Source: Lama glama
Taxonomy: Eukaryota
Reading direction: 5' to 3'
Assembly: GCA_028534125.1 (NCBI GenBank)
Contig: CM052816.1
Coordinates: 58,406,001 to 58,470,000 of the forward strand
Length of the DNA: 64,000 nucleotides
Of this stretch, positions 18,701 to 50,400 are shown piece by piece; the first letter of the stretch is position 1; the number at the start of each line of letters is the position of its first letter. The notes under the pieces were generated by a model that did not search any database, was not told the DNA's origin, and was given only the letters and a program-made list of their open reading frames with translations. A program made the position numbers and the translations under genes.

Positions 18701-21700
18701 TTAACGAACTGAACCACCAGCATTACTGGCTGAAAGGAAATCCCGAAACAGGGAAAAGATGATGCTAACTATCCAGATCTTCTATATATGGGGCTGAAGA
18801 GAACCTAGGCAGCCTACTACTTGCACTGCTTTTCCTGTTCTCACTAGTACCCTAAAGGCTGGGCCCTTGGCAGGGAGGGGAGGTAGAAAAGGAAGTGGGA
18901 CGGGGTTTCAACATGTCCATCACAATACAGTGAGGCCACTGAAAAATAAATTAAGAGCACTCTGCAATCATACAGAAAAATTTTTTCAATATATTAATCT
19001 TTAAAAACAGAAAGCACTAATATATATACAGAACTCAAAATAAGAAAAAGACAGATACCCAATTCTAAAATGAGCATAGATCTGAAGATACATTTCTCTA
19101 AAGAAGATAAAGAAACACATGAAAAGAGACTCAACATTAGTCAACAGGAAAATGCAAATCAAAACCGCCATGAGATAGCACTTCATACCCTCTAAGAGAC
19201 CTATAAGCAAAGAGACAAATAATAACAAGTGTCTCGGAAGATGTAGAGAAACTGAAACCCTTACAGATTGTTGGTGAAAATATAAAATGCTGCAGATACT
19301 TTTTCAAAAGTCTGGCAGTTCCTCAAAAGGTTAAACACAGAATTACCATTGACCCAGCAATTCCACTTGTAGGTATAAACCCAGAGAAATGAAAACATAC
19401 GTCCACACAATAACTTACACATCAAGTGTTCTTAACAGCATTATTTATAATACACTAAAGGCAAATATACTAACCATTAAACTGTACACTTTAAATGGGC
19501 AAATTCTATGGTGAATTATCTCAACAGAACTGTTATTTTAAAAAGCATTGAACAATATTTATGGTATAGTATGCATATATTTTTGTTCTTTTGAAAGGAA
19601 TATATATGCGTACACGTGTGTGTGTGTATGTGTGTGTGCGTGTATGTATATCTGTCTATGTATAGACACACACCTTGTTTAGATGCTTACATGTATGAAA
19701 CATTTCTGGAAGTCTACAACAAAAACTGTTAACAGTAGTTTGCCATCAGAAATGGGATTGGGGGACTGGGAATCAAAGAAGGAGGGAATTTCTAAAATTT
19801 CTGCCTTTTCGGTACTGTCTTATTTTTTGCCACATGCATGTACACTTAAAAGAAATATTTGCTTGAGTATTCATGTATAAACACAGACACACAGAAAAAA
19901 ATATATACAAAGAGAAAATTTCATCAAGTAAATAAAACAAAATGGTAATAATTACTGAAACTAGATGGTGGATTTATGGGTATTTATTTTATAGCTCATT
20001 CTACTTTTTGTATGTTTTAACTTTTTAATAGTTAAAATAACTTTAACGACTGAATATTCCATTTGAAATGCTTATGAAATTTCTTGTGTCAAGTAGCTGC
20101 GTAACTTTCAAGGGAACAATAAAATTTACCTCTTTGAATTTCCACTTCTTCTCCTTTGGCTATAAACAAACTAGGAAACTCCTGATGAGTACCAAAACTG
20201 CTGGTCTCAAAAATCTTCTTCATATTTGGCTTAGGCTTAGCAAATATACTCGTTCTCAAATTATCAGTCACTTCAGAAGTTGTAGTCCTAGAAAGAGATG
20301 GGAAGAGAGAGAAATTGATCAACTGTGTAAGAACTCTCTCACACTGAGACATTCTACCTTGAATTGACACAGTTACATGCCACCTTCTCAGGTGCCACGT
20401 AAGTGTCATTTCTCAAAGCTAAAATTATGCAGTAGTAACTTATCCAAAACTCTTGAGAAGGGAAAAGAATTTGGACTATGTCTGTCAAACAGGAACTATA
20501 TTTACATAAAACTATTTCATTAAAGCTCCAAACATGCATTGTGGTAATTTTAATATGCAAACCATTAAACTAAAATCAAAATCACCAATCCTTACTTTAA
20601 AGAATAAAAAATTAGCACTGCTCACTTTATATTTATACAAATATTACTCAAAGCTGTTAGCCAAACTGATGGCTGGTTTATGTATATTTATTAATTGAAC
20701 ACTATAATTCTTTTGTAAAATTCAAAAAATAATAGTAGTTTGATAAAGCAAAATAAACCTGGATGACACAGCATTCTCCTTTACTTCCTCCATTAAACCA
20801 ACTTCTTCTTTAGTACTTTGTTCCTCCAATACAATCTTGTTTTCTTCTAATGATGGAGATGTACTATGGACAGGTGAAGAAGGTTCCTGACATTCCTGAA
20901 CAGTTTTGTAGTTTATATTATCTGGGCTAAAAGGAATATGACTTTGATCCTCTGAATGAATATCAGGAAGTACACATACTCCTACTGCAAAAAAAAAAGC
21001 AGAAAATTAAAATTGACCCAATACAAATAAATGTCCAAGTAAAATAAACCCTTCAACGTTCAGTAATTATTAAATACTATATTATTTTTAAAGTTTGCTC
21101 TTCTAGTCTCCAAGTTTAAATTTATGATCTCATATTTCATGTCAGAGATTTGACCTAAGTTTAATAATTCTTACAGACTGAAATTTTTTTGTTATAAGTA
21201 AAAATAAATATTTTTGTTGCTTTCAGTAACTATATAACCTCAGCTGAATTTCAAGATAGGATTATCTTGATTTACAATTTCTTAAAACCTGTATTTTATG
21301 TTCTAGACATTTGTGACAGGCTCCAATGCAATACTCTGCCATTGAAAAAGGAGCCCTTCAGGGAACACAAATCAGAGACTTTTCTGATAAATATAGAGTT
21401 ACGGGTCTAAAATTCTGACACCTAATATAAATGGCAGGCTACTCATTAGCAATTAAAATAATTAACAGGATCATAATTAACATAATTATTCATTTAATGT
21501 ACTTAAAGTAGAAGATATTTAAAGAGAAGAAGACAGTAAAGTCTTCTCTATATCAATCTAAAATACTAAAAATCTGGGTTGACGTATTTTTTGGCTCAAT
21601 CCAAACTAACAGAATAGTCTAAAGCATCTCAGTGACTGCAACTGTCCCTTCACACTACATGTGACTGTCAAGTAACTGTGAAGACTATCCAAAGCAGCAG

Positions 21701-27700: not shown

Positions 27701-30700
27701 CATTTTCATCACTTCAGAAAAGAAACCCCATACCCACTTCTTTAATCCCTCATCTCCAAATTCCTAAGCAACCACTAATGTACTTTCTGCCTCTATAGAT
27801 TTTCCTATTTTAGACATTTCATATGAATGGAATCACATACTAGTGATTTTTTGGTTTCTTTCACTTAGCATAATGTTTTCAAGGTTTCAAGGTTCATAGT
27901 GAAGTATATATCAATATTTTAGACCCCTGGATGATTTAACAATATGCCATTGTATTTCAATGCTTTTTAAACGAACATTTCCTAACATATAAACAAATTT
28001 CCCTGCCTTAGTAAATTGGCTATTAGGAATATAATTTAACCTTTCCTTGCTCAATTATTATGATTAATGCTATTTAAGAAAGCATTTGGTATTAATTCAG
28101 GGATACATCCTGGAACCTGATTTTCAGAACTTAATTTCTGACATTTGTTTTTCCTAGCAGTCTGCCTTTTATCCAAAGAAATTTTTAAAATACAAAATAC
28201 ATAACTAAATGAATTTTCATGTAGTAATCAGCTGTCCTTGAACAAAATTAACTGTCCTTTTACATTCTTTTGGTTTCAACTAAAATTTAAATTCACTATC
28301 TTTACTTTAAATTTTAATTATAAGAAACAACCTCATTTTGTGTCACTATAATTTAGCTTCAACCATTCCAACTTAACTGTATAACATCCAGTATATTATT
28401 AACAATAAATAAATATAGGTTTGGAATTCCATTCATAAATGTGAACTTACAGACTCTACAATCCATTAATTCTGGGTTAACTTAATATTACTTGAAATGT
28501 TTCATATTTCTTACTTCTTTCTGATTCTGTTTCAAATGATTCAGACAGATACTATCATGAATACAAAACAGATGCAGATATAACTCTATCAGCCAATTAA
28601 GTTACTGAAAACGGAGGCAGAACAGAGAACTTTGAAGTTAAAAAGCTAGAAAACTAGACCAAGAGGCAAAAGAGTAAGGAGCTTTCACAATAAAGTAAGT
28701 TGAAGTAATATAATACGGTCCTCTACTTCATATCCATTAGGATGGCTCTTAACAAAAAAAACCAGAAAACAGAAAAAACAAGTGTTGGTGAGGTTGTGGA
28801 AAAATCAGAATCCTTGTACACTATTGATGAGAATGTAAAATGATGCAGCTGCTATGGAAAACAGCATGGTAGTTGCTCAAAAAATTAAAAATAGATTTAC
28901 AATTTACCATATGACCCAGCAATACCACTTCTACAACTGACAGACAGCAGGGATTAGAAGAGATATTTGTACATCCATGTTCATAGCAGCATTCTAATAG
29001 CCAAAAGGCAGAAGCAATTCAACTGTCCAATGACAGATGAATAAATAAAAAGTGGTACTATATATACAGAATGGAATACTATTTGGCCTTTAAAAAGAAC
29101 ATCCTGACATATGCTACAATATATATGAACTTTGAAAACATTATGCTAAGTGAAACAAGCCAGTTACAAAAAAGACAAATACTGTATGATTCTACTTATA
29201 TGAGGTACCTAGAGTAAGTGGCTGCCATAGGCTAGAGAGGAGGGAATAATGTGGAATTATTATTTAACAGATACAGAGTTCTAGTTTCTAAGATGGAAAA
29301 AGTTCTATAGATAGATGCACTTAATGCCACTGAACTGCATGCTTAAAAATAGCTAAGATGGTAAATTTTATGTTATATATATTTTACCACAATTAAAAAA
29401 AAAAAAGATCCAGCCTCAGCTGTAAAGGACATTTGTATCATAATTCATTTGTATCACTTAAAATGATGTCATAATTTTAAAGTAATACATTAAAAAAAAA
29501 AAAAAATACGTTCCTTTACCTTATCTACCAACCAGAGCTCACTCAGCCTGAGCCTATCACAAAGGCTATTATTAATAGAAAACATCTGCCAAGTTGTGTG
29601 TGTGTGCATTTTTTTTTAAATTAACCAGAAAGTAGACTAAGCAGCCTCCAGATACAAGTGAAATCAGATTTCTATCAGTATTGTTATGAACACCTTGTGC
29701 TGGGCCCTGGGCTGTAGGAGCTGAGGAAACACAAGAGATAACACAAGCCTACTTCTACTGATTCCTTAGGCTATCCATCAAGCCTCAATCAAATCACTTT
29801 AATAATATTCAAATCCTAATAATCACTAAGAGAAGAAATAACAATCCCCTAAAAGAAAAGAACAAATATGATAAAAGTTCTAAGGATTCAAAACTCACAC
29901 TACCTCTTCCATGGTTTCCTCAATTTGAGCAGAAACAGGTTCAGGAGATCTGAGACCAACAGGAACAAACACTGGAGCTTTGTTTAATTCTTCTGGAGCA
30001 AGATGATAGTTTTCTTCTTCATAGTCAGACTCAAAGTCTTCAGCATCATCTTCGTCTTCTTCCTGGGAAGCCCGAAGAGTCACCAGCACAGCCTTGGAAG
30101 CTCTAGGTTCCTTCTTAGAGGTCTTACTCCAAATTCGTTTTGACCCACGCCCTTTGGGGACATTTGGTTTCATTTTTCGACGCACTCTCCTTTCACTACG
30201 CTCTATCTCACATTCAGAGGCAGAAGAGAGAGCTGTTCTTCGATTTGAAGCAATTTTAGAGTAATTTGATTCTTTGAACTGCTGTGGACAGCTGGATGTT
30301 TAATTAAAATAATAATATAATCATTACATGCACAAGGATAATTTTAATGAAAACCCAACTTTTAGAGTGAGATCCCAATTCAAAACATAAATATAAAATG
30401 CCCACCACCCATAATGTCAAAAACTTATGCTGTGAAAAGAAGAAAGGAATTTACTGTTAATACTATTGTTTTTCATTCAGAGGTCTTAGTTATCTACTTA
30501 CAAATTTTTCTAAGTTTTCAACTCTGGGCCATTTTTTCCCTTGCTATTTAAATGGCGATGAAATATGAGACTGGAAATTATTAGAAGAAAAAGCGATAAA
30601 GAACACTGGACCAGTGAGTTCAGAATATGAGATCAAAAAGTGATAGCAGTTTATCCTATTGGGTAAACCAATCAGGTTAAAAGAAAAAAGAAGTGGGAAA

Positions 30701-33700
30701 TCTATTAGAACAATGTTTTTTAGCACTTAGGCTCCCTTCCACTTTCCCTGAAAACTGTTTAGTAAAAGAGTACCCTTCACCTGTGTTTGCAACTCCATTC
30801 GAAATAGTGCCCTAGTTACTTAGGCAATACATACTACTTTTTGGTCAGACTTCTGTTCATGTCTAATATACTCAACACCCAGAAATTTAAAACATAGGAA
30901 AGAAGAATCTTCCTGAGAAGATTAGGGAAAAATGTAAATTTTAGTAAATAAAAATCAAAAATCTGGGAAAGAAACAGATGTGTCAATTTAAAAAAATCTA
31001 CACTTCTGTTAACAAACCAGCTTTTTACTCCATCAATAAGTTAGAGTAGGACATCCATAAAGAACAAGTTATTTTTATTTCCTATTCTGAAAGTATTTGG
31101 TAAGTAAAACTTTACCTTGTTGGTTTACTGAAACACTGCTCTTCAACAACTGAACACACAGAATTATCCCCTACAGTTTTTTTTGCAACACTTCCTGATG
31201 GTCCAACTTCTGATTGAGCATCTTTTTTTGCCAAACCAGTCTCCTTGGAACCTACACAATCTTTTCTTGCTGAAACCTCCAGAGATGTCAGAAATTCAGC
31301 CTTTTCCTTAAATTTAAGAAGAAACAGCTAATATTACCATGGAAACAATCTGTATGGTAATTTGGTTTGGTAGCTTGGCCTAAAGCTCTGAGCTTACATA
31401 CATATACACAACTGACTGGTTTCTAAATTTTTATAATATTGGGAAGTCAATCAATTTTCATGAAAGTAGTTATTGTACAAATGGCAAAACTGTATTTTTT
31501 TAATGTTCTCCTTTATGATACTGATAAACAGAGCGCACTGACAGAAATTACTTTTTGTCAGGGGTAAGGGTGTAGCTCAGTGGTAGAGTGCATGCAAAGC
31601 ATACGCGAGGTCCTGGGTTTAAGCTCCAGTACCTCTATTATTTTTTTAATTTTTTAAAAAATTAATTGAATTAAAATTTTTTTTTAAGTTGGGGGGTGGG
31701 TATAGCTCAGTGGTAGAGCTCATGCTCAGCATGCATGAGGTCCTGGGTTCAATCCACAGTACCACCATTAAAAAACAAACAAAAAGCCAAACAACTCCCC
31801 TCTTCCAAAAAAAGGAGAAATTACTTTTTTTCTAACTTACTTTTTGAAGGAGATGGGTGTCAGATTCTCTATGCTGCAGCAAATTATCTTCTGGCTTTCT
31901 TGCCTGAATCTGATCTTCTCTGTCTTTTTCTATGCCTGGTTCCTCTTTCTTACCATGTGCTCTTCCCAAATTTGGCTTAGCCTTTTGGAATTGCCTTCTT
32001 ATCATTTGTGGTGGACTAGGAACACATGTTTTATGTTCATGTCTAGAATGAAATACAAATCATGTTGAAGAACCAAAATCAGAATTCCTGTTGATATAAC
32101 TTGTTAAACAATTCTGGGCACAAACCAATTCTATGTTCAAAGGACTATATATAGATAGGTAATAAAACTAAGCATATAAAATGAAACCACACATGCTGAT
32201 ACGAAAGAAAGAACATAAAAGCGTTTATAACTTCCCTTTTCTATATAGCCTGGGGAATAGTTTCACAATAATATTAATCTTTTTTCTTTCACTCATTGAT
32301 TTTGATGTGTGGTTTGCTACTTTGAGTACATTTTAGATAAATAACTAGATACAAAACAAAAATGCAGTTGAAGATAGACCTCATAATGGCACTTTAAAGA
32401 AATGCCTTCAACTGGGCTCTGAAGCGTGAACAAATATACAATGGTCACAACAACCTTGGTCCTTCTGGTTCAAGAGCAGGCTTGAAAGCCAGAGTCTATT
32501 CTCCCACCACATGCCTGTCAGCTCATAGAAAAGGGTATACCGACAGCCCGTGTCATAAAGATCTCAACATAACCCATTTGTATCTGCAAAATCAGAGAAA
32601 AACAAGGTTTTAACATTCAATACAGTAGCCATAGCTCCCAAGGCAACTCAAGCAGCTGTCTCAAGGTTTTCTGGGAAATACTGAGTAACTGGCAAGGATC
32701 TGAATTAGGAAGTTTAAAACTAATATAAATCTAGATATTTATATATAACTGAGTATGTAAGTATCTATCATGAGTTCTCTGAAAGATTTGTGTTAAAGAC
32801 TAATCATAAGTAATTTTTCTAATAAATTACCTAGAAGAGAATGTAATTAGTTACATTTCCAAATGTTTCAACCCCGCTAAGTTCTTCCAGAGTGAAACAT
32901 CAAGGAAGTTCACAGGAAGTTATAACAAGGTGATGATGCTGGTTAATACATTCCAGTGTAGGCTAATGTACTTGGGAAAACAAGTTATATTTAACTTCAA
33001 TATAAGCTACTTACAAACAAGTGTGATTCTACAAAGGTACTTAAGAATAAAACATACTGGGTGGTAGAGTGCATGCTTAGCATGCACAAGCTCCTGGGTT
33101 CAATCCCCAGTACCCTCATTAAATAAATAAAATTTTAAAAAAAAGCAGGGACCCCCTCCCAAAAAATAAAAAATTAAAAAAATGGAAAAGAATACTATAT
33201 TAAAAAAAAGAATAAAATAATACTATATATATATATATAAGCTCAATGTACTACTGAGGTTTCTATATAGGAAATCTTGAAAGTTAAATCTCGCTTATTA
33301 AAAAATAAAATTGCTTGGAACAACTGTAAGAATTTGCTAGTCTGAAAGTCGTAAAATCCTGAAAATTTCAGTTTAAAAGCTAAATTGCCAATGTTACTTT
33401 GAGCAAGCTATTTATGTCCCCTAGATCTATTTAGACAATTATAAATGAGGGCCTTAGAAAGGCTGACCTCAAAGGTCATCAGTCTTAAAGGCTCGTTTAG
33501 AGTAAAAATCAAAATCCTTACAATGGTGCTACATAATCTGCACTTCTGCCTACTCAGCCTTTTCTTTTCATGTATCAACACTTTTCCTCTTTCTGTTTCA
33601 CACTGGTCCCCTCTGCTGTTCCTCAAACATGCCAGACATGCTTTTGCCTTAAGTCCTTTTCAGCTGCTGTTTCCTCTTCCCCTAGACATCCCTTGACTTG

Positions 33701-35381
33701 CTCCTTCACTTCTTTTAGGTATTCTCTCCAATGAGACCCTTTCAAGGAAGCATTCTCTGATCTCTCTGCTAATTAAAATTAAATTTAAAGACTGATATTT
33801 GTCTTAAAATAAAAACAATATGAAAAGACTTTTTCAAGACACCTATACATACACAAAGGGAAACAAAAGAAACAACAGAAGTTCATGCTAAAATAATAAA
33901 CTTCATAAATAAACGCAGACTGTTTAAAGTTATGCGAAATCAATAGCACCACTTGTTCAGATAGATGACATAATGCCCAAATTCTATTCACAGAGGATGA
34001 AAAAAGGATACAATTAACATCTCTTTTGCATTTCCCCACAACCAAATTAATTCTATGTAATTAAAGGAAGGTGGAATATTCAAAGTCAACTTGTAAATGC
34101 TAAAGACATTCTAGAGGAAAATCAATAAATACTTCACTGAAACATGTCCTAGTTACAAAGACAGTGTAGTAAATTAAAATTAGATGGCCACGGACTGTAT
34201 CCAGAAAGGGAAAGATTTTTAAAATTTTCCTTACACACTAAAAAGAAGAAACTAACACATTCTAATTTAGTATCAGTAATAATAAAGCAGATTGTAAGCT
34301 TAATAAATAAAAGTTGTGCTAAAATATCTTCAATCTTCCAGCGTCCCATTTAAAAGATACTATTCTTACAATTTAGCATGGGACACAACTCTAAATACAG
34401 CACATAGGAAGTACTTTACATCACTTCCCATTTATGAATTTTATCAATAGGTTATACATTTCTAAAGATAGAAAGAACTTAAGAAGCTCTACTATACTAG
34501 TTTTAAAAGAATAATGAGGATGCTTGCCAAACTTCTCAGAGAAATTATAAATTAAGAGAACATCAGTCAAAAAATTATAACAATAATAATAATGACACAA
34601 ATGAACTAATTATTATTTTGATTTCTTGAGTACCTGTAAGCACATTTGACTGCCCTTTATGATTAGATTACCGTATTCTGTTGATTCTTATTTTGTAGTT
34701 GGCTTTATTCCTTCGATAACTATGAAAGTTTAAAAAGCTAAAGATCTAATCAGTTATTAGAAACAATAGTTAGTACATATATGTAAACTAAAAAAAAGTG
34801 CAGTATACTGTATATATGAATTTACATGCAATATAATCTGTATGAACAGTCGAACTGTAGTAATTCTACCTAATAAAACTGGAAAAGGAGGAAAAAAAAG
34901 AGAATATCAGTCATGCAATTATTACAGTATAAGAAGAAACAGATTTAAAATATTCCACATTCATATTTTATCCTTTCATAAAACTTATTAAATGTGAAAT
35001 TATATAAAATCAATTATTCAAATATCCAAACTTTATCTTTGAAAAGTTTTATACTTTTCTTATTAAAAGCAAACAAACTCACCTCTGACAATGAGTGTGT
35101 ATATGTCCATGAATGACTAAAAAATTGTGCTGAACACTGGAATTTGACACAACATTGTAAAATGATTATAAATCAATAAAAAATGTTAAAAAAAAAAAAA
35201 GCAAACTCACCTCATCTTTTCATCTAAAACTTTTATTCTGTCAACAGGAAGGTTTTCTAAAGGAACCACGTGACTCTGGTTTTCATACATTCTGCCTTCT
35301 GAAACTTCGGAGGATAAAATTTCAATTTCAGTTGCAATTTGAGAATTTGGCTGAAACGACAAACCTATATTAGTCTTTTTG

Positions 35382-35413
<32 letters not shown>

Positions 35414-38400
35414 CAATGGAACATACCTCTTAAAATCTATCAATCATTAAGAAAGGTATTTAGTTTTTTTAAAATGAAGTCTCAAATTTGAGTTATGTAA
35501 TGTTCAAGTTTTGCTGCCCAAAACAAAATTGCCTAATTCAGAGAGAAAGTTTCAAAGATTATTGCAGCAATATGTTTTTATAATGATTTAAAAACTGTAA
35601 CAGCTATCTGTTGTGAATCCCCTCAAAAAAGTTCAATGCTTGTAGAACGGATAAACAAGATTACACTGTATAGCACAGGGAAATATACACAAAATGTTAT
35701 GATAAATCACAGAGAAAAAAATGTGACAATGAGTGTGTATATGTCCATGAATGACTGAAAAATTGTGCTGAACACTGGAATTTGACACAACACTGTAAAA
35801 TGGTTATAAATCAATAAAAAATGTTAAAAAAAAAAGTTCAATGCGTTTTTTTTTAAAAAGAATACTTAGGAGGAGGATTTCAAATAAAGATTACAATCAT
35901 TTTAATTTAAATATAGATTTTCCCTTGGTAAAGAAAGAGAGAAAAATAAGAGCTGTTAAAACAGGCATTAAACTACTTAGATTTGCTTCTAATATCAAAA
36001 GATTCATCAATAAGAGATTGGTTAAACTGTCATTCAGAACAGCAGAATGTTATGTAGCAGTTAAAAATGATGTAACTCCAAAAATACTTCTTTACGTGGA
36101 AAGCCTCTTAATATAATAAGTTAAAAACAGTTAAATCATAAAGTAATATGTATACAATGATTTTATTATTTAAATTTACACAGGTACACACACATACATG
36201 CATGGAGATGTATCCAGTAGGATATGTCAAAAATTTCTCAGTAGTTATCTCAGAGTGATGAGACTCGGGATAGTTATTATATTATTTTGAATTGACTGAA
36301 CATTTTCACAATGAATAGTCAGTTCATTAGTTAGGGGGAGAAAAACAGTCTATCTTCATTAAAAAGAAAAAATCCACAATGGTAAATCTGAAACAAAACT
36401 GGACATGTTATGTACTCATTGAGTAAATATTAGATGCCTATATTCTAAGTCAAGTCTGAGCTACCATTTGATATTTTAATTTGCATTTAAAGGCTTGATT
36501 TAATTACACAGCAGTAACTCACCAGAGTTAGAAATTTCTTTTTAGTTTCATCTTTTTGTAATGTTCTTTCTTCTTTAATTGTGTCTTTGGCTTCACATTT
36601 TTCTATTATTTGCTTCTGTCCAACCTTTCTTAAGTTTGGTCTTGGTCTCTGAAGTCGGCCCCTTACTGGTCGAGCAGTTTGGATAACACTTTCCTTCATT
36701 TCTTGTTGGAAAGTGTTTTTATTCTGAGTCCTAGAAAAGGGGACAGGAAGAAAGAGAGAAAGCTTGACTGTAAAAAAATGAAAACTACTGTAAAAATATA
36801 AAATTTGAATCTAATAAACTCTATGTAAAAATATTTTGCACATTAAAGGAAAATTAAGTTACTTTCTGATTATAAGTCTATCTTACATTAAAAAAGTTAT
36901 TTCCATTCTCAAAAGGTAATGAACTTATATGAGGCACCTACATGTTCAAATTCATAGCAAGAGAAAGCACAATGGTGGCTGCCAGGGACTGGAGGAAGAG
37001 GAGAATGGGAAATTATTGTTTAATGAATACAGAGTTTCAGTTTGGGAAGATAAAAATGTTCTAGAGATGGTTGGTGGATTGTGCACAACAATGTGTATGT
37101 ACTTAATGCCATGGGACTGTACACTTAAAAATGGTTTAAATGGTAAATTTTATGTTTTACATATCTTACTATAATTTTTCAAAGGTAATGAATACATACC
37201 TTACATACATATATGCTTAAATATATTGTTCTGTATAAGATCTTAAGCAGTTAACATTGGACATAAGCAGGCAAGTATTAAAATCAATCTGATTTTCTAT
37301 TTTAGGCAGTCTGCCATAGGAATAAAAGTAAACCAAGTATTCTTGATACTCACTTTTAAAATATGTTAACACATTTTTTTCAAAAATGAAGAAATATTTG
37401 AAAGAATTTCCTTATTTAAGATTTTTAAAAAACTACCACTGTTTACCCCATGGAGATAACTAATTTCTTTTCCTGGGCGTGTGTAGACTGAGATTCCTCT
37501 TTACGTTCACAAGAACTTGAAGGTGAAAAGTCCTTTTCAGTCTGTAGACATGGTAGTATCACAGCTTCCTCCTGCCTGCAAACTGATTCGTCACTTTCTC
37601 TTGATGTCATTAGGGAAGCCACATCCTAGAAGGCAGATAAAAAAAAAATTCATCAAGTTATTTAAAGTATAAGGGAAAAGGAACTTTAATAAATTGTTAG
37701 AAGAATAAACATAGTCTTTGTAGAGACAACAGGGCAGTATCTATCAAAAATTTTAATTCCCAGCAATTCTACTTCTAGAAATATATCATAAAAACACTCA
37801 AATAAATATCTAGAAAATTATATATAAGGATATTTATTATAGCAATAGGCCCCCCCAAAAACTTAAAGAAAAAGAAAAGAAAAACAAAAAATTGAAAACA
37901 AGACCAATCAGTAGGGAACTGAATAAATTATAGTATCTGTACTCTTAACAGTACAGTCATTTAAAAGATTAATTTCTATATATTGATCCAAAAAAATGTT
38001 CACAATATTGTATTAAGTGAAAAAAATCAGAAGGCAAGCTATGATGCCATTTTTGTAAAGCAATGAAAATACCTGCACACTATTTCTATAAATAAGTATC
38101 TGTACAGAAAAGGTTAGACAGATATATGTAAAACTGCTACAGGATCAACCTGGGAGGGAGAGATGGGCCATTATAAAGGACTCTCATTTTTTAGATGACT
38201 TATTTTTTGCAATTTGAAATTTTTATAATCAGTTAAAATAATCAATAAAAAGTTATTTATCTTCTTTAAATATAAGATTAAGAGGAAAAAGTACAAATGT
38301 TCAAGCATAGTAAGAACTAAGCTAAGATGTAAAAGAAGAATTTTAATTCAAAAAATACATCTCAAGTTTAGAATACTCAACTTATGAGCATTAACGTTTC

Positions 38401-41400
38401 ATTTCGAGGTTTCTGATGCTGTATCACACATCTTAATCTGTTATAGATCAAGTTAATGTAAGTAAAATAATTTCCTTTAACTCATAACAAGCTTTTAACT
38501 TTTTGCCTTCACAACAGAGTGAAATAAAGACGGACTATCATTCTCATTTTCCAGTGAAGAAACTGGTTGCATCACTTGGCTATGGTCAACTATTGAATAA
38601 AGGTCAGAACTTGAACTTGAGCCCAGGCCTCTTAAAATCTTTCCCATGACACACTTGCCCATCATCAGAGATCAAGGTTCTCACACAAACCATGTGGAAC
38701 AATGAGGCACATTAAGTACAGCAATAAAAATATCACACACAGTAAAAATTATATGAGAAAATATTTGCATTATTTCAATTCCAAGTGTTTATTTTAGTAA
38801 CTATAATAACTAAAACAAATATTCTCGATCTTAAACTCACATGTTGAGAAGGGAGAACATGCGTTTGTTCACTTTTCTGCTGTATCACAACAGTCTCTGT
38901 TTTATCAGCTTCAACTTTCTTCCCAGGTGCATATTTTTCTGCTTCCGTAGTCTCTCTCTTTGAAGCTGCTCTTGCTAAGTTTGGTTTTGGTCTTTTGAAT
39001 CTACTTCTCACAAATGGTCCTGGTTTAACTTCAAATGGCTTCTGTTCTTGAGGAAGAGATTTGCTGTTGGAACAAGGATTATCAAACTTTAGGATGAAAC
39101 GAAGGGGCAGTGGGAGTGGAATCTTAGGAGAACCTTAGAGACTTGGCAGTAAATATTTAATTCTAATTCTTAACAGGAAAACAAAACTGGACTATTTGGT
39201 AGATTCTAAAAAACGTGAGTTGTAGAATCCAGGTATAAACCTAGGAATTATAACATCTTTGCACAAAGAAAATACAGGTTTGTCATACTTGTACTGATTT
39301 AGGAATATGTGTTACATATAATTTTGTATGTTAGTAATTCTCACAATCTACTGTAGAATGACCTTAAAACTCTCCCAGTCTTGATTTCAAAATTGTAGAA
39401 TAGATAAACAAGATTACACTGTATAGCACAGGGAAATATACACAAAATGTTATGATAAATCACAGAGAAAAAAATGTGACAATGAATGTGTATATGTCCA
39501 TGAATGACTGAAAAATTGTGCTGAACACTGGAATTTGACACAACACTGTAAAATGATTATGAATCAATAAAAAATGTAAAAAAAAAAAAAAAACTATGGA
39601 CCCCAAGTACAGAAAATAGAACACAGTAGTTATTCCAGGACTCTGGAAGTTCAAGATCAAAGAGTAGAATGGCTAAAACCACAGTGATAGACATAACCAT
39701 TTGTTCAAGATACCAGGGGACTTCTGGAGTTGATTTCTGGAAGTAGATGTCCACTAAGCATCAGCAAACTTTTGCTTTTCTCCTACTCATTCTTTCAAAC
39801 AAAAACAAAATCCTGCCTCCTGTCTGAGCAATTTCACAGTATTTGATTAATATGAATGTGCGGGTAAACAGTATTGAGCTGTTCAATGAAATTTCTGATC
39901 AGTGTAAAACACGGATGCTATTTATTGTCCTTGCTTTATAAGCTAACTTAATACTTTTCAGATTTTACATTTTTTGTCTTAACAATAAGACAAAACTTTT
40001 ACTAATCATTTGGTATGTTTCTGCCTTTTTTTAATTGAAGTATAGTCAGTTACAATGTGTCAGTTTCTGGTGTACAGCGCAATGTCCCAGTCATGCATGT
40101 ACATACATATATTCATATTCATAAAAAAAAAATGCTGTTTGTAACCCAAGCTAATGGAAACAAGGAAACGTATAGGCAAGGCCGACTTCCAATACCTGCC
40201 CGCACCGGGGTGCCTTCTGAAGCACTGCCCCCGGCGCCCCGCTGAGTCCGTGGCGGGGAGACAGGCTGCAACTGCGAATTTCCTTGATAGCTTCTGTCGT
40301 GACCTTAATGCACTTTGAGCAACTTTCTGGTTAGTACATTTAATTTCCTCTCTTTCACAACATAGGTCTGACCCTGACAGGATAAGCTACCACAACTGAG
40401 ATTCAATTATCACCAAATGGAGAGATTGCCCCCATCTGAGTCCCAAATGCGGTGGTTTTCCATTACTACCCACTCCCACTGATCACCATACAGGGTCTTT
40501 TTTGAAAACTATAACCTCGTAAATTCTTTGGCTAATATTAAAAATTTCTTTTATGAAGTTAATAAAATCTTATACTTAAAAAAAAAAAAAAAAACTCTCC
40601 CAGTCTTCCCCAAACCCGCTTAAAATCTCTAACACTATGCTACAGGTGATGTGTCTTAAAATGTCATTTAGTTTAACAAAATCTGCAAATATAACTATAT
40701 GCTTTCTCTTTGAAAGCACACAGATCTATATACACTTTTACCTTAAATTAATATCTGAAAACTGCTCTGGAACATCTGGACTTTGCATCCTCTGTTCTTC
40801 TATTTTACCAAGATCAGAAGCCTGCGAAGAAGTCTCCAAATGACTCAGCTGACTTTGTACTTCCTTTTCAGAATTTTTCTTCTCTTCTACAAATGTATGC
40901 ACCACGGACAGTATTTCACTGCTAATGTCCTGAAAGTAAATCAACACATACACAAGATTCCTTAAGCATTTCACAAATTTCAAACAAAATTGTCTTTTAT
41001 ATGCACACATATATTCTACACATTGTCTTTAAAAAAGCAGAAGTTTGAGGTATTTTATTTTTACATAAAAATGTTAAAACACAGGAAACTTCTGTTTATA
41101 TTGCATATTATGATTTTTCCAAACTACAAATGGCACTACTTACTCAAAAAAACTTAGAAAACTAGAAAATGTCAGAATAGCTTGACCTTCAATTAACAAG
41201 AAACTTTTAATAGAAGGAACTTTTAAAAGTGGAGTGAAGTGGGGTAGAGCAGAAAATAGGAAAACTGACACAGGTACAGTCAAAAGAAATAATTCCAATG
41301 TATGTTCTTATTAGAATTAACACAAATTCAGTCCAATTTCCTATATTCCTTTTATCTATGAGTAACTTTAAAATGACATTAAGAATAGTAACTTTGGGGA

Positions 41401-44400
41401 AGGGTATAGCTCAGTGGTCCAGTGCTTGTTTAGAATGCATGAGGTCCTGGGTTCAACCCTCAATATCTCCATTAAAATAAATAAATAAATAAATAAATAG
41501 ATAAATAAATAAATAAATAAACCTAATTACCCCCCCAAAATTTTAAAAATAAAACAGATTTATTTTAAAAAAAAAGAATGGTAACTTTTCCACAATTAAA
41601 AGAAATTTTTAATTATTTTTCAAAATGATTATATAATTTTTTAAAGTCCTGAAACAGAACTGAGGATTGGGAAAGACTTTACATTTTAAGAGACTTTAAA
41701 TGTTGTTGGATATAAGGGCAATAATCCTAGAATTATTTTGATAATGTTTCTCTGGAAAAGAAATTTTCAAAAATATTCAAAACAATATTTTTAAAGAACA
41801 GAAAAATACGTACTTTAGTATTTAGTGAAGGCACAGCACTGCAGTCACCGCTATGGCTCTGCAATGAACGTGTCTCAGTTTGTCTTGAGGTCCCAGTCTC
41901 CTCTGATTCACTTTTCCTTAGAGAAATGTCTATTCCAGTTTTTTCCAAATCTGTCACCTTTTCCTCAGTAGCACTGATCTCTTCTGCTCTGCTTTTCCTT
42001 AAGGAATTTTCTATTTCAGTTTCTTTCAAATTTGCTTCTGCTTTCTCAATGGCAGGTATCTTTTCTGATACTTCTTCCATTAGAGAAATGTCTCTATTTC
42101 CAGGTTCTTCCAAATCAGTCTTCCTTTCCCCTGTGGCACAGATCCCCACTTGTACCTTTTCCCTTGGGAAAATTTCTACCCCAGTTTCTTTCAAATCTAT
42201 TTCCATTTCATCACCTATAGTTTTGACCACTGAGGCCTTTTCTTGTGTAGATACTTCTCTTCTTTCAGTTTCTTCCAAATCTGTCTCCATTTCCTCAGCA
42301 GCACCAATCATCTCCAGTGTGTTCTCCCTTGCAGAAATTTCTTTTTCAGTTTCTTTCAAACCTGTCTCCATGTCACCTATAGCACTGACCTCCTCTGCAG
42401 CATTTTCCTGTAGGGGTATTTCCCTTCTTTCAGTCTCTTCCAAATCTGCCTCTCTTTCCTCAGTGGCATCAGTCACCTCTGGTACCTCCTCCCTTAGGAA
42501 AATCTCTCTTCCTGTTTCTTTTAAATCTGTCTCCATTTCCACAGTGATATCATTCATTTCTGATATTTTCTCCCTGGGAGAGATGGCTTTTCTTATGGTT
42601 TCTTTTAAGTCTGACTCCATTTCTTGAGTAGTATTAGTCTCCTCAGGAACCTTCTCCCTTGGTGAGGTTTCTAGTCTTACAGTTTCTCGCAAAGCTGCTG
42701 TCATCTCCTTAGGAGCAAGAATTTCCCCTGGTAACTCTTCCTTTGAGAAAATTTCTCTTCTTCCAGCTCTTCCTATATTTGGCTTCGGTTTCTGAAATCG
42801 AGTCTTTAGAATTGGGACTTGTTTATTTGCTTTACTATCTTCTTCAACACTATTTTAAAAAAAAAAAAAAGGCATAATCAAGTTTTAAACCAGACTGCCA
42901 ACTGAAGAGATGATGGTTGAGAAATCACTACTGAAAAGCCAGGAACTCTCAAATAAAAAATTTCTTTTAAATAAAAAAATTAAAAGTAAGGAAGTGCCAG
43001 GAATCTCTGAACTAAATTTAAAAACTAAAGGAGAGAAAATTCCATCCTTTGAACTTAGAGTAAATTTAAAAAAACACATTTATTATATACATAGAAATCT
43101 TATCAATAAGGTCTTAATTAAAGTAGCAGCTAAGAAAGACTCTCCAGTCCTCTACATTGGAGCTAGGCCAGTTTGTGCCTGCTATTCCTACCTCTTCACC
43201 CCTACTATCCTTTACCCAGACACATGTCTTGCTGTTAAGAGTTGAAGAACTCATTTATATGGCCAGATCTGACCAGGATCTTAAATAGCTGGATGGAAGT
43301 ATAATTTAAAGAAGGTGCAGAATACTTAAACAGGCTCATTCAGCTGTAAGAAGGTACACGACACGCCAGACTTCAAATGTAAAGACTGTAAAATAATAAA
43401 AATTACTGTAACTAGACAGTACATACATGGAAGTCCATTATTCTGTTCTCACTACTTTTGTGCCCTGACTATTCCCAAGAGGAAAAAGGTTTTCAAAGCA
43501 TATTAATTCTGTCAATTTGGTTCAGTATCCTCTGGTGGGGAAGTAACAAACAGAGCTTTGGCTATGTGAAGTATGAGTTTCTACATAAGAGTTTCACATA
43601 AAATTTATGTAAACCTTAAACAAAGGTAATATGTGATCAATCTAATCCCAAAGAAACAAATATTAAGAAAATAAGCAGCATTTTCATATTTGGATAGAGA
43701 CATCTAATTTAATGTCTATGTTAAGTGACAGTACCATCCACATTAGGTCTAATTTGTGATGAGTAAATCAACTCATCAAACCACCAACAACTGAGAAATC
43801 ATGAAGGCAATGACACAAACTGCCTTGAAAGGTGAATTTATACTTGTAAATATTATGTAACTTGATATACAGATAACAAATTAATCTGATTTGCTATTGT
43901 TTTCTAAAAAATTATTAATAATTTCTAAAATTTTACATATAATCCAAATATGATGAAGCTTACCTTAGACATTCATTAAGAGCCGTGGGCTCATCTGATT
44001 GCACATTTTGAAAAGAAGTATCCTTTTCTTCAGATTGTGATGTGATGTCTTCACACTCAAACTTTTCACATGACTGATCTATCTGTTCAGGAGTCTTAAT
44101 AGCAAATAACATTTTAAAAAATGTTTCCCATGTCACAATTAAACACCCATTTATAAAAGATTTCATCAAAAACTACATACAATTTGAGTTCAAGGAAAAT
44201 AGTAAACATTTCAAAATATAAAATGATATTCAAGAGGTGCTTTTTAATGTTTTTTCTTTAGATATAGAAAATGTCATAAGCCACACCTTTTACCTCATCT
44301 CAAAGCCCCCATTCTTTTTCTCCCAGTCAGAAAATAAGCAACTGCTTCAGTCTCATCTGTTAGAATTATCCCTTGGGTTCTATCTTACTAAGTCCTTTTG

Positions 44401-47400
44401 ATTATTATAATCACATTCTAGACCTTGGGAATTACAACAAAAGAGAATTAAACCTCAAAATATGCTAACTCTTTCGCTTTTCACAAAGACCTGTTATTAT
44501 GTAAATAATCCAAAATTTTTCATCTTTGTTGTTGGGATTATATTTTAGTAGGGAGCTTTTAATGTTTTATTTTGTTTAAGTTAGTATTAAAATTCATGTA
44601 CTTAGCTATGTTTTCAGAAGAGAAATGTAATTCAAACACCTGCTGAGTGATGGGGGAAAAGCAAATCCAAACACAAGTAAGGTGAAAGCAGACAATTCAT
44701 CATGTAAATGCTTCAAATCTAGAAAGTTGAGAGCTAAGTAGCTTTACAATTATCAAAGCTGCTGGCTATGAGACTTAGGCCTTAAATTTAATGAACAGTG
44801 TACATAAATGTATAATATTGTTGATTAAAAAGAGGGGTGAAAGTAGGCTTATGTTAAACTAAAACACTAGACGATATCAAAGTACTTACATCTCTGTCAA
44901 TACAGGATTCAGTTTCATTCTTCTCTACACTGGCCTCAGTTATTTCCCGTGACGTAAGAACTTCTTTTCTTTCAGCAGCTTTACCCACATTCGGTTTGGG
45001 CCTTTGCAATAAGCCCCTCATTAGTCGTGAAGGTCTGAAAGCCTTTGGCTGATTATCTTCCTGAAGACAAATTTTTTCACTCAAACTACAACAGTTACAA
45101 AGGAATAAAATTAATGGTCATTCTGAAGTCACATAATTAGTTGTATGTCACATAGTTGCTTGTTTTCAGTATTCCACTCTCCCAGGTATAAATAAGTAAA
45201 TCATCTGAAATACAAAATAATTAAACAGTGGCCTCAAGAACAACCTCAAAGGTATTCATACCTTAACTCACTAGAACACAGTCCTAGAAGCCTGACTATA
45301 AAAAAGCATTTTAAAATCAAATTTACATCACAATATTGGAAAAATTTGTATCTGACAAGCATGGAATACTACTCCCCACTGAGAAATAGTATTACCAATA
45401 TTAGTAATATTATTACTATTAGTAATAGTATTACCACTGTGTATTGTGTATCTCCAGGGCTGGGGCTGGGACACACATTATGGCACAAACATATAGTCCA
45501 GAATCCACTGGTTCAGATTTATATTGGAGCAAAGTCTATTCTAGATCTCCATTCCAAGTTCATTATTCCCTTTTAAAATCCCCTGCTATAAGAATACCCA
45601 GAAACACCATTAATTTATCTAATAAGACTTTGTTAAAATCTTGTTTTAATAAGCTGGAGAAGGGTAATTGTTAATTCACCAGATCCATACCATAATTTAC
45701 TTCTACAGTACCAAGCATAAAGAACATTATCCAAATGTTTCAACAATACCTACGGTTAAAAATAGACTTAAAAAAAAAAAACAGCCTTATGTACACTAGC
45801 TGAAAATAAAATTCAACATTATCAAGTAGAAAACAAGTCATTACAGTCATTCCTAAGAGTTATTATTTTTATTCTACTTCCTAAATACTTACTTAGATAC
45901 AGTGTCAGCTTCTGGGTTCTCTCTCTCTGAATTCTCCATTCCAGGAATATCAAATGTATTCATTTTATCCTTTTCCATGTGATTCTACAAATATAATTTT
46001 TTATATTTAATCTACTTAGTATAAAAAGTACAAATTTTCTAACAAACAAATAAATAGATGGAAATTAAAACAATGAAATTTCACTTTTTTGTACTTCTAT
46101 TAGAAGGAAGTTTTTAAAATCATAAATGCAAATTCAAATATTTTACACATATTATCTCATACATTACTGATAGAAGCACAAATTGGTAAATCCTTTCTGG
46201 AAAGTCTCTGGCAACATGAATCAAGAGCTTTAACAATGTTCATATTCTTTGACACAGTAATAGCATTTCTAAGACTCTATTCTAAAAAAAATATTTAGAC
46301 AAAGATTTAAGTACCAGGATGTTCACTGAAACATTATGCAAAATAGCAAACACTGTAAACAGACAAAATATCCAATAATGAATAAACGGTTAAACAAATC
46401 CAGTTACACCCATTGGCAGGATATTATCAAGTCACTTAAAACTATGTCTTCAAAAGACATTTAATGATATGGAAAAATATTTATGGAAAGTGAGAAAACC
46501 GAAGAAGGATAAAAAACTGAATAGCACTACTCAATCTTGTAAAAGAAAAGCTGGAAGGATATATTCCAAAAGACTGGTTGCATGTGGATAGTAAAATTAA
46601 GTAATTTTTGTTTTAATGTTTACATAAGTCTGTATTTCCCAATTTTCTAGAATTTAAAAACATCTTATAAGATTAAAATAATAGATTATAAAAAGTATGA
46701 TAAAAAAGAGATCACATAAGAGGAAAAAAGTAGACTAAAATTTTAGAAATTATTTTAGCAAAAATAAGACATTTTTAACAACATAACACTGGCAGGGACA
46801 TAAGGCAACAGGAACATTCATTTAATGCTTGTAGCAATGTAAATAGACTGATTTTTCTTTTTGACTGACAGTTTGACAATGCATAACAAGAACCATAAAA
46901 ATATTTAATTTGGCTTATTAATCCCATCACCTCTGGATATGGATTCCTTACCTAGTAACAAAATTGTCTGCTTTTATTTACAAGAGTTAAAAAAATGGAG
47001 ACAACCTAAACATTAGAAATGGTTAGGTAAACTAATAATATGTTAATAGCTGATGCAGCTATTAAAAAGATCAATTAACCTCAAGAAAGTGTACATGAAC
47101 TGTTTCAGAGAAGTTTTAAATGCTATATATGTTATGATTAAAACTATAGAAACGTTTACTTACATAAAAAGAGATAAAGTTTATAAAGGACAAACACAGA
47201 AATGTATCTATGTTTAGACAAAGGGGTTGTGGATATAATTTTATTATAGCTGGTTTAAGAAATATTTTGAATAAAAATTTTATATATTTATACAAAAGAC
47301 AAATCTGTCACTACTAAGGATGTTTGAAATGATATGTCCTAGATTCTAAAGAAAATGCATAAACATGAGACTAATAAGACATATTTAATATTAATGTACA

Positions 47401-50400
47401 AAGTTCTTATATTTTGGTTTTACTATCAGTAACATTTCCTTGTAATTAAAAGCTAAATATTTTTATTCCCAACTGTTCAGAAAAAAATTTTATAATTTTA
47501 GTTTTCATCAAGTCTCCAACTCCAGAGGGGAAGGTACAGCCCACTGCCTGGGTTCAACCCGTGTCTCCACTAAAAATAAATTAAAAAATAAATAAACCTA
47601 ATTACCTATCCCCTTCAATTAAAAAAAAAAAGATTCCATTCTGACAGAAGTATAAGTTACCAAATGGATGATTCTCTTTAAAAAACAAACAAACAAAAGT
47701 CTCTCATTCCATACCTTTTCAACTGAAGTTTCTAGATGCAAACTCTTGCTCTCTGCATCTGTTTTACCTTGTGAAAGAACTGATTTCTTCCCAACTGCCC
47801 TTGATAAATTGGGTTTAGGTCTCTGTAATCGTCCTCTCGTCATTGGTTTAATATTTTCTGTTTGATCAGTTTCCCTAGAAAATTAACATTATTTAAACTG
47901 CACCAACACGCAGGCATATTCAAAAGGAAAATTTTTTAAAAATCCAGAGACAGAAAAAAACTCCTTTAAGCTTACAACAAAAGTAGCATAGAAAACTGAA
48001 CAAGAAGAGCAATGAAGGGGTAACTAATTTGTTTTATCCAATGTTAAAAATATACTATTCAGCATCAATAATCAAAATTCTGTGGTACTGACAGGAATAA
48101 ACAGATAAATGGAACACAAAAGAAAACTGAGAAAATGACTCCAAAACACATACGATTATAGTATATAATAAAGTTAGCATTTCAAAACAGTTGAGGATAA
48201 GATGAAATACAAAATAATGTATTTTAAAAATAAATACTAAATTAAATTAATTATGATGGGGAAACTGATAATACTGTGGAATAAAATAAAATTACCTCCA
48301 TTCTTTGTACTGTACTCACAATATATTCTAAATGGATCCAAGATTTAAATGAAACCATAGAGAAAACATGAATGCGTTCATAACCCCGAGATAGGATAAG
48401 CCTTTTTCAAACTTAATTAAAAGTTCAGGAGCCATAAAACAAAAAAAAGAGAGAAACTTGGTAACATAAAAATCAAAAAATTTACATAGCCAAAACATGA
48501 CTAAATCAAATGATAAACCAGAAAAGTATGTTTTACAACTCGTACAACAGGCTAACCTCTCTAAAATATAAAGAGCTCCTACAAAACAGTACCAAAAACT
48601 CATTAGGGGGAGGGTATAGCTCAGTTGGTAGAGTGCCTGCTTAGTATGCACAAGGTCCTGGGTTCGATCACCAGTACCTTCATTAAAAAATAAACCTAAT
48701 TACTCCTACCAAAAGGGAAAGAAAAAACTCATTAAAAAACTGGACAAAGGATGCAAACAACTCACAAAAAGAAAACAAAATAAAAATAGATTTTAAATGT
48801 GAAAAGATGCTCAACTTCACTTCAAAGTAAAAGCTGATAGAGCAAGTGAGCACAAATGTGACAAAACGTTAAGAATCAGAGAATCTATGGGAAATCATAT
48901 ATAAATGTTCATTGTTCTATTCTTTTGACTTTTCTTAAGGTTAGAAAATTTTTAAATAAGCAACTGAAAGAAAAGAATGAAAGAATTACATTATCACTGT
49001 CAAAAAAAGGTGTGGGGTAGAGATATCATACTGAGAGATTATTTTATAATCTATCAAGACCAACAAAAATCCAAGTTTTATAACACTGTTGATAAGGGAG
49101 ACATTTCTCACATTGTTGGTGGGAATATAAACTAGAATAATTCCTAGGGAGAGCATTTTTGAAATACCTATCAGAATCATAAAGGTATAAATGTACACAA
49201 ACACCTATATATCCTCTGGGCTAGCAATCCCATTTTAAGGAACTTATCCTACAAATACACTTACACAAAGATGAAAGGACAGAGGTGTACGTTTCTAAGC
49301 ATTTTGTAAAAACAACATATATAGCCATCAACAGGGCCTGATAATAAATACTGTGATTCATCAATACAACAGAACACTATGCAAGTATAAAAAGAATAAG
49401 GAAGGTCTTTACATAAAAATATGAAGATATAAGACCAAACAATTGCAAAATGGTATGTATAATATTACCATTAGGTTTTTTAAAAGAGTAAAAAAATATG
49501 TGTGTGTGTGTGTGTGTGTGTGAGTATTTCTAGTAGCTTTAATGTTGTTTTAAAAAAAAAAATCTCTGAAAGAATATAAGAAATAAATAACAGTGGTTAC
49601 TTGTTAGAGTGAGTTGGGGACATAGTAGGAGGGACACTCCACTCTATACCTTCTCATACTTTTGGATGTTTGAAAGATAGGAATATATTGCTTATTCCAA
49701 AGACCAGTTTAAATTTTTATTTAAAAGTTAAGTTCGCTTCTCAATGTACTATGCTTTACTGAAAATAAGAATTCATAAACTAAATAGCTTTTAAGCCCAT
49801 ATGAGGAGCTAGGAAGGAGATAAAAAGGAAGTCTGAATTTTTGAGATACATTTTCAAAGGGAGATCCTTGTGGTGCTTTTATTCTGTTTGTAGTGAAGAT
49901 AGTCATTTAACCAGTATTTTCCTACTAGAAAATGTAATACATAATCTCTTTAAACACATCAATATCAAAATCTACTACTTTGACAATAGGCATGAAAAAT
50001 AAACCAAGTAAAAGTTAAATCTCATAGCAAATATTTAGGTTTCCAAATTACTTTAGAATTTTATCATAAGGTATCACTTTGCTATAACTCATATCACTAT
50101 TATACATCAGATATAAAAGACAATCTTTCTGTAGTGAAACATAAAGTGAAAAACCTTGATATCACTAGGACCACAAAACAATTATATAAAGTGGTCTGCA
50201 GTCCCTTCCTAATTCCTAAAGGAAGCAACATTATCATGTTTTAAATAAGAAATTATCAAAATTTTGAAAATAAACTTTAAAATCCTACCATGTAAAATAC
50301 TTACAGTGATTTATTTTTTAGGTCAACATTTCTTTCTTCTGTGTAACTGTCCTCAGCATTATTCACCTTACACAGTGCTCTCATGCCAACTTCTGAGGAA

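Follow-up and report, generated by a model that had tools for sequence, protein, structure and literature searches.

The locus analyzed here raises the question of what the long disordered extension of BDP1, a general factor of RNA polymerase III (Pol III), consists of and how it came into being. The window, a 64,000-nt stretch of Lama glama DNA (contig CM052816.1, positions 58,406,001 to 58,470,000), harbors the camelid BDP1 gene on its minus strand, and an initial annotation made from the letters of this DNA had proposed that exons 13 to 25 hide a two-exon module repeated seven times, each copy carrying one short basic motif. The exon phases, the conservation of the motif and young duplicates in orthologous proteins suggest that the extension is very probably an array of duplicated motifs kept by selection. 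The array is real and conserved, and it has apparently not been described before.

Gene model and exon phases

The exon 25 reading frame is 96% identical to a Camelus ferus protein in a protein search, and all of its 45 matches, ranging from mammals to teleosts, are either named BDP1 or unnamed and orthologue-like. Exons 7–39 were modelled using tblastn with eight mammalian orthologues, lists of splice sites and a search for two small exons; together they encode 2,106 aa in a single open frame, their ends being AG/GT. Exons 1–6 belong to locus L002, just beyond the window. Evidence for the junctions comes from splice signals and from orthologous proteins, not from RNA reads of the source animal, and they are supported by 71 of the screened mammalian BDP1 records, in which every exon from 9 to 39 is present. 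The exon numbering of the initial annotation matches this model, the limits it had set for the repeated region (47874 and 29904) coincide with the exon 13 acceptor and the exon 25 donor, and the nine peptides it had quoted are all encoded on the minus strand where it had located them.

In the gene model, exons 13–25 alternate between phases 2>0 and 0>2 with no exception, and a copy of the motif is found in all seven odd-numbered exons and in none of the six even-numbered ones, exactly as had been claimed. Shuffling the 33 phases of this gene 200,000 times never produced such an alternation over 14 introns, and independent draws at the typical intron phase frequencies of 0.47, 0.30 and 0.23 produced it in only 4 of 200,000 cases. 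The exon pairs from 13+14 to 23+24 measure 252, 327, 1224, 402, 348 and 393 nt, all divisible by three, and each of them has the same phase at both ends. The distance from the acceptor to the invariant Asn amounts to 21–32 codons in seven of the eight copies, the eighth copy of the array lying in exon 30, and to 43 codons in exon 25. The link between phase and motif is not universal, since exons 32 and 35 are of phase 2>0 and have no motif, which rules out the rule that every 2>0 exon carries it.

Degenerate copies had also been proposed in exons 30 and 38. Both exons start in phase 2, although exon 30 ends differently (Table 1), and the exon 38 site is weak. The exon 30 copy, degenerate in the camelid, is RSRFAKPKPNL-like in other mammals, while the exon 38 site reads RLQKPLI in turtle and contains PKPN in two frogs. 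The KPN[VI] part of the exon 25 copy is retained in several amniotes. As for the even-numbered exons, which had been called acidic and Ser-rich, the contrast with the odd-numbered ones is largely made by the motif itself: the D+E+S fraction is 0.30–0.40 in even exons, and odd exons counted without their motif reach 0.23–0.41. Acidity was rejected as an independent signal because of this overlap.

Conservation of the motif

The core motif is RxR[FL]Q[RK]PKPN[LIV]xR, with the longer form RxR[FL]Q[RK]PKPN[LIV]xRAxx[KR]; the conserved signal runs from a Pro situated ~14 positions upstream of the Asn to a basic residue seven positions after it, so the element is about 20 aa long. Conservation was expressed as the modal-residue frequency in 13-aa windows. 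Among 21 mammalian sequences, which include close relatives (ruminants, cats, rodents) and one marsupial, the cores of exons 13–23 average 0.89 compared to 0.70 for other windows, with the best non-motif window at 0.85 and none of 100,000 resamplings reaching 0.89. The best-kept positions are the Pro (0.99) and the Asn (0.97). In 20 sauropsid sequences the cores average 0.74 compared to 0.62, and six of the eight are at or above the 95th percentile. The comparison of motif with flanks, which the initial annotation had suggested as a check, thus comes out in favor of the motif in both groups. The motif profile gave 817 matches in real proteins and none in 165 shuffled ones.

The copies are not equally strong. 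Six of the seven that had been presented as comparable are well conserved, although the margin is small for exon 15, while the exon 25 copy is shorter and, like the exon 30 copy, does not exceed its flanks in mammals (Table 1). It had also been supposed that only the motif stayed conserved in the extension; the motif has been retained, but there are conserved non-motif blocks in exons 25, 28, 34 and 38 as well, and exon 17 holds a known 55-aa repeat, so the extension is not solely a motif array.

The non-motif blocks in these four exons score 0.82–0.89 in mammals, and the C-terminal tail block of BDP1 recurs as far as teleosts. None of the blocks listed in Table 1 has a Pfam family, and their sequence conservation makes them candidates for further binding sites. 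Pfam has no family for the motif either, SANT/Myb being the sole domain found in BDP1.

Distribution across animals

The profile built from the eight copies in the window matched 74 proteins among 1.84 billion, 70 of which are BDP1 as judged by the SANT domain, a BLAST match or the name; the other four (P0280, P0282, P0299, P0310) were unrelated tandem-repeat open reading frames (ORFs) and were dropped. Counted C-terminal of the SANT domain at the thresholds used, the copies number mostly 6–8 in mammals, 7–9 in turtles, 9 in the tailed frog, 8 in the coelacanth and the alligator, 7 in the axolotl, the caecilian and the echidna, 5 in the brown trout and 3 in the horn shark. Scoring of orthologues, also suggested in the initial annotation, therefore finds the motif from shark to human with 3–9 copies depending on lineage, whole units having been gained and lost across vertebrates. 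A protein of the spider Nephila annotated as TFIIIB B carries three RxRFxKARPNI copies, two of which are identical, possibly as a model artefact. Human BDP1 has all eight, at residues ~604–633, 704–725, 802–828, 1427–1456, 1563–1591, 1671–1698, 1821–1849 and 2096–2113.

In the PDB, the motif profile matches human BDP1 only and the N-terminal peptide discussed below matches BDP1 only, and the ESM Atlas gave no usable match for an amphibian-type array fragment or the spider protein. A search of the animal's own genome with exon 19, insensitive in that it missed three known copies, returned five BDP1 exons and one match with an E-value of 7.8 containing a stop, and no second gene carrying the motif.

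The brown trout protein P0291 is a BDP1 with the SANT domain and the motif array that public databases list under the name mucin-5AC. Marsupials (P0101, residues ~1000–1480; P0268) have their own low-complexity SSLQGEA-like expansion after the exon 19 motif, whereas in placentals it is the exon 17 motif that is followed by the 55-aa repeat; the two expansions are independent spacer growth in different modules.

Origin of the array by duplication

The proposal that the extension grew by tandem duplication of a frame-symmetric exon pair is backed both by the phases and by young whole-unit duplicates in orthologues. Homologous spacers between neighboring motifs were detected in 10 of 20 proteins tested, including those of axolotl, frogs, trout, turtle, caecilian and coelacanth. 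The axolotl protein has a 136-aa period with 99 of 109 spacer residues identical, close to the camelid pairs 19+20 (134 aa) and 23+24 (131 aa), and the similarity between its repeats begins about 12 residues before the motif, as expected of a unit consisting of a motif exon and a spacer. Unit duplicates are identical at 137 of 162 residues in trout and at 51 of 73 and 48 of 74 in two frogs, while those of turtle reach z values of 7 and 10. Tandem duplication is directly supported because the axolotl, frog and trout proteins hold such young duplicates of motif plus spacer. Five non-mammalian single-exon ORFs, read from translations and covering motif exons only, part from their best spliced match at places compatible with a phase-2 acceptor and a phase-0 donor, two of them tightly when set against alligator. 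The duplication origin of the array is well supported by these sequence comparisons: a 2>0 motif exon and a 0>2 spacer exon would have been duplicated repeatedly with the frame kept, after which the spacers would have drifted while the motif was retained.

Several observations weigh against this picture. In the camelid itself, the spacers have no detectable homology to each other (z ≤ 1.3 in 15 of 15 pairs), nor do the motif exons once the motif is masked (maximum z 3.9), and a comparison of the exons at the DNA level gives no match outside exon 17; since the spacers share no similarity, the evidence within the camelid gene is limited to the phase pattern and the motif. Individual copies appear dispensable, as neognath birds mostly keep about five (range 3–6) and several copies have decayed, for example that of exon 23 in cattle. 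Teleost arrays are mostly situated after the exon 25-type block, which makes their exon-level orthology with mammals uncertain. The copies could also be neutral remnants of old duplications with no present function, as the extension is not strictly needed for in vitro transcription (PMC5526994) and copies decay in birds and cattle; the motif, however, was retained while the spacers lost all mutual similarity, and its occurrence extends from shark to mammals and to the spider record, so this alternative seems very improbable.

The mechanism by which the array would have been built is known, and for BDP1 it has apparently not been described before. Internal duplication of symmetric exons or exon pairs has been reported to build genes for disordered proteins, one example being a duplicated 1,0-0,1 pair in a microtubule-binding protein (PMC3632108). 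BDP1 shares with these cases the frame-symmetric unit, the disordered product, the tandem copies and the short motif in each unit, but differs in that the pair is 2>0 / 0>2 and belongs to a Pol III general factor, and in that mammalian similarity survives in the motif alone; BDP1 is not mentioned in the available passages of that paper.

Within BDP1 itself, also known as TFNR, a 55-amino-acid repeat was reportedly described by Kelter in 2000. It resembles the motif array in being a repeat in the same extension, but its composition is acidic, it is contained within exon 17 and the present analysis observed it in placental mammals only, unlike the motif array, which is basic, spreads over many exons and is vertebrate-wide or older; the identification of the array with this repeat was rejected for its acidic character and confinement to exon 17. 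A literature search that included the motif letters found no prior description of the array among the papers it listed, the papers Kelter 2000, Schramm 2000 and Weser 2004 and supplements lying outside that search. In the available excerpts, PMC5526994 mentions only the 55-residue repeat for the extension, PMC3846559 states that BDP1 has no specific domain besides SANT, and there is no mention of a motif array in those of PMC11696126, PMC12409998, PMC8837262 and 10.64898/2025.12.24.695929.

Table 1 Features of the BDP1 gene and of its surroundings in the window. Conservation is given for mammals as core versus rest.
Feature	Position	Strand	Phase	Motif core	Conservation	Remarks
Exon 12	50305-50463	-	2>2			Symmetric; NAGNAG acceptor
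Exon 13, motif copy 1	47715..47874	-	2>0	47799-47837	0.91 vs 0.73	RGRLQRPKPNLSR
Exon 14, spacer	45893..45984	-	0>2			No motif
Exon 15, motif copy 2	44890..45085	-	2>0	44980-45018	0.82 vs 0.77	
Exon 16, spacer	43964..44094	-	0>2			
Exon 17, motif copy 3	41814..42849	-	2>0	42768-42806	0.91 vs 0.68	Followed by the known 55-aa repeat (period 55)
Exon 18, spacer	40742..40929	-	0>2			
Exon 19, motif copy 4	38841..39063	-	2>0	38970-39008	0.92 vs 0.73	
Exon 20, spacer	37447..37625	-	0>2			
Exon 21, motif copy 5	36523..36730	-	2>0	36625-36663	0.90 vs 0.67	
Exon 22, spacer	35211..35350	-	0>2			
Exon 23, motif copy 6	31841..32042	-	2>0	31961-31999	0.85 vs 0.67	
Exon 24, spacer	31116..31306	-	0>2			
Exon 25, motif copy 7	29904..30291	-	2>0	30153-30191	0.70 vs 0.87	Short variant; followed by a strongly conserved non-motif block
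Exon 30, motif copy 8	20130..20287	-	2>1	20215-20253	0.75 vs 0.74	Symmetric pair with exon 29 (1>2)
Exon 36	10610-10571	-				
Exon 38, possible degenerate copy	8052..8298	-	2>0	8190-8213		4.8 bits in camelid
Conserved non-motif block	29904-30100	-				
Conserved non-motif block	22050-22142	-				
Conserved non-motif block	14898-15084	-				
Conserved non-motif block	8230-8298	-				
Conserved non-motif block	6615-6680	-				
Intronic repeat	35640-35835	+				
Intronic repeat	39393-39588	+				
Intronic repeat	35086-35200	+				
Intronless ORF	1215-1586	+				Pfam Ribosomal_L7Ae match

Isoforms and copy number

The initial annotation had suggested that the number of motifs could be tuned by in-frame skipping of exon pairs. 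Annotated isoforms were compared within taxa in 111 comparisons (84 and 27 new ones), with at most 15 listed members per 90% cluster, and a whole unit of the main array was removed in two of them: precisely exons 19+20 (134 aa) are missing from the sheep RefSeq isoform X5, and an isoform of the bird Pogoniulus has lost 126 aa surrounding a decayed copy. Such skipping therefore exists, although two cases in 111 are weak support for tuning by this route. In addition, the counterpart of exons 29+30, the 1>2 / 2>1 pair carrying copy 8, is left out in 4 of 17 comparisons among turtles. Several records simply end early, namely those of pig and cattle with 839–848 aa, which end in exon 17 with three copies, and those of gerbil with ~1,848 aa, which end near exon 28 with six. 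Skipping of module pairs looks rare, and early ends are the more visible route to a change in copy number. Where models made ab initio or from strain assemblies (camel P0001, gundi P0012, seal P0004, and pig and goat UniRef entries) contained the exons only patchily, this was not accepted as evidence for splicing. Tissue-specific BDP1 splice forms have been reported (PMC3082873), and BDP1 is among the genes with intronic-polyadenylation switches (PMC13187750).

Exon 12 is skipped in one goat and one sheep RefSeq isoform and in several pig records. Several bird isoforms (P0388, P0385, P0392, P0419) lose 33–43 aa right after the PN of a motif, deletions which would trim the C-terminal half of the motif.

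Putative docking partner of the array

A protein-docking function of the array is predicted with good confidence, while the identity of the partner is a more doubtful matter. The initial annotation had pointed to similar basic stretches at the N-termini of BDP1 and RPC4, and these do exist. BDP1 starts with RRxR[LFI]S[VF][KR]PN[VI], found in 249 records, and a second motif, RRKRIS[TA]xPNL, is located near residue 100 in non-mammals, its PN having been lost in mammals. Camelid POLR3D (RPC4) reads KKKTFTPNIISRK and shares the spacing of F, P+2 and R+7 with a segment of yeast Rpc53. The N-terminal TFIIIC-binding region (CBR) of Rpc53 and the N-terminus of RPC4 are like the array in being disordered, in placing hydrophobic residues beside the basic ones and in combining an x-P core with an Arg further on (PMC10404625). 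They are unlike it in being single-copy, in having Phe where most BDP1 copies have Pro and in having no upstream RxR[FL]Q.

These two N-terminal relatives of the motif are encoded on the minus strand of locus L002 at 8803-8874 and 6047-6340. They have Ser where the array has Gln (RRxRLS compared to RxRFQ), and it may be speculated that they, unlike the array, could be switched by phosphorylation.

The yeast system points to TFIIIC. Residues 1–57 of Rpc53 bind the TPR region of Tfc4 at 5.6 nM, three mutant peptides bind it at 40–100 nM, and alanine changes at S23–L28, F30–P32 and R37–S39 cause cold sensitivity, those at F30–P32 and R37–S39 impairing growth (PMC10404625). Yeast Bdp1 binds the TPR array of tau131, the changes D468K or L469K strongly lowering the binding (PMC4490372), and competes with tau138 on this array (PMC4490372, PMC7528018). 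The tauIR of tau138, Bdp1 and the Fpt1 helix are, as the array copies are, short disordered segments of Pol III factors, and they dock on the TPRs of tau131/GTF3C3; the available excerpts mention neither a repeated array for any of these ligands nor a sequence motif common to them (PMC4490372, 10.64898/2025.12.24.695929). For human BDP1, the 1–484 protein was the wild-type construct active in vitro (PMC5526994); it keeps the N-terminal motif, and all eight array copies lie beyond residue 484. The 220 and 250 kDa forms of BDP1 showed more TFIIIC activity than the shorter ones (PMC3082873, citing Weser 2004). TFIIIC is the best-supported partner because of the binding of yeast Rpc53 and Bdp1, the activity of the 1–484 construct and the TFIIIC activity of the long forms, although we put it forward only tentatively, its chances being clearly below even.

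Against TFIIIC docking through a motif of common descent stand the profile scores. Real copies have a median of 22.9 bits on the array-core profile, whereas the BDP1 N-terminus reaches 3.6 bits and the RPC4 segment 2.8 bits (p ~5e-4 per window), less than the 3.9 bits of an unrelated RPC4 window; RPC4 is not among the 74 profile matches. The likeness that had been proposed is weak. Furthermore, the tau131-binding part of yeast Bdp1 (PMC4490372) need not be the array motif, and the activity of the long forms could come from other blocks, such as the exon 25 block (0.87). A complex prediction for the exon 19 peptide (32 aa) with residues 140–850 of GTF3C3 scored 0.01 against a mark of 0.34; it was run without alignments by a method unvalidated on peptides and counts neither way.

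Residues 1–57 of yeast Rpc53 also bind Rpc37, at 8.2 nM (PMC10404625), so the partner of the array might be another part of the Pol III apparatus, e.g. RPC5/POLR3E or SNAPc, with the tail capturing or recycling the polymerase. Human RPC4 29–46 adjoins the RPC4/5 module (PMC10404625) but stops short of the FTPN stretch. Deletion of the BDP1 N-terminus lowers SNAPc binding and abolishes U6 transcription (PMC5526994), though that construct loses other essential segments too, and outside the SANT region BDP1 is disordered in SNAPc-Pol III structures, which, however, used BDP1 1–484 (PMC11696126). We consider such a partner rather unlikely.

The basic residues, of which there are 4–6 per core, might instead serve to bind nucleic acid or nucleosomes via Arg and Lys, making the extension a series of anchors on DNA or chromatin, separated by acidic spacers. 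Many copies start with RGR, but RGRP, the AT-hook consensus core, was found by inspection in none of the eight camelid copies, for which reason the AT-hook was rejected, and the best-kept Pro and Asn fit a shaped protein pocket better. A BDP1 linker near the SANT domain does bind the DNA minor groove (PMC5526994), while Rpc53 1–57 did not bind tDNA (PMC10404625). On balance, binding to nucleic acid is regarded as quite unlikely.

Basic, linear and disordered copies could also act as redundant nuclear import signals. The classical monopartite nuclear localization consensus, K[KR]x[KR], fits KKRLK of exon 38 and KRPK of exon 19, yet by inspection the latter is the only one of the eight camelid copies to contain it; the invariant PN[LIV] is no importin requirement, and the N-terminal half of BDP1 has its own basic clusters. 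Import is accordingly an improbable role.

Returning to docking on TFIIIC, the BDP1 extension would be a flexible tether displaying a repeated short linear binding motif of ~13–20 aa, an amplified relative of the two RRxR[LFI]S..PN[VL] motifs at the BDP1 N-terminus. The motif would dock on the Pol III machinery, most likely on TFIIIC through the TPR array of GTF3C3/TFIIIC102. With more copies, binding would gain in avidity or reach, and the long forms of BDP1 would thereby remain on TFIIIC or bind it again; in minimal in vitro systems, the N-terminal copies would make the array redundant. Taken as a whole, this explanation, a duplicated motif array tethering BDP1 to the Pol III machinery, with TFIIIC as the leading candidate, falls just short of an even chance.

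Other features of the window

The three near-identical intronic repeats (96–97% over 112–196 bp) are probably young transposon pieces. The intronless ORF near the start of the window matches Ribosomal_L7Ae with an E-value of 6e-19 and looks like a processed pseudogene, which we take to be one of RPS12.

Significance of the array

About four-fifths of human BDP1 (residues 485–2624) lies outside the construct employed in the cited in vitro and structural work. The finding reduces this region to eight mapped sites, with two N-terminal relatives, whose conserved residues are specific mutation targets for finding the binding partner, and peptides and point mutants offer a way to test the role of long BDP1 forms and the reason for their higher TFIIIC-type activity. 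The copy number provides a rule for reading BDP1 isoforms and variants. A bolder view, the chances of which we consider low, is that an old docking motif of the Pol III system, common to RPC4/Rpc53 and the N-terminus of BDP1, was amplified in animal BDP1 into a multivalent array for TFIIIC TPRs, the copy number tuning the holding or bridging of TFIIIC complexes or the competition with Pol III. If this were true, the array would be a molecular basis for the TFIIIC1-like activity of long BDP1 forms, and lineage-specific duplication together with truncated or pair-skipped isoforms would tune copy number and hence docking. A single long BDP1 molecule might in that case hold several TFIIIC complexes, or bridge them, at tRNA clusters, short interspersed elements (SINEs) or extra-TFIIIC sites, or else compete with incoming Pol III.

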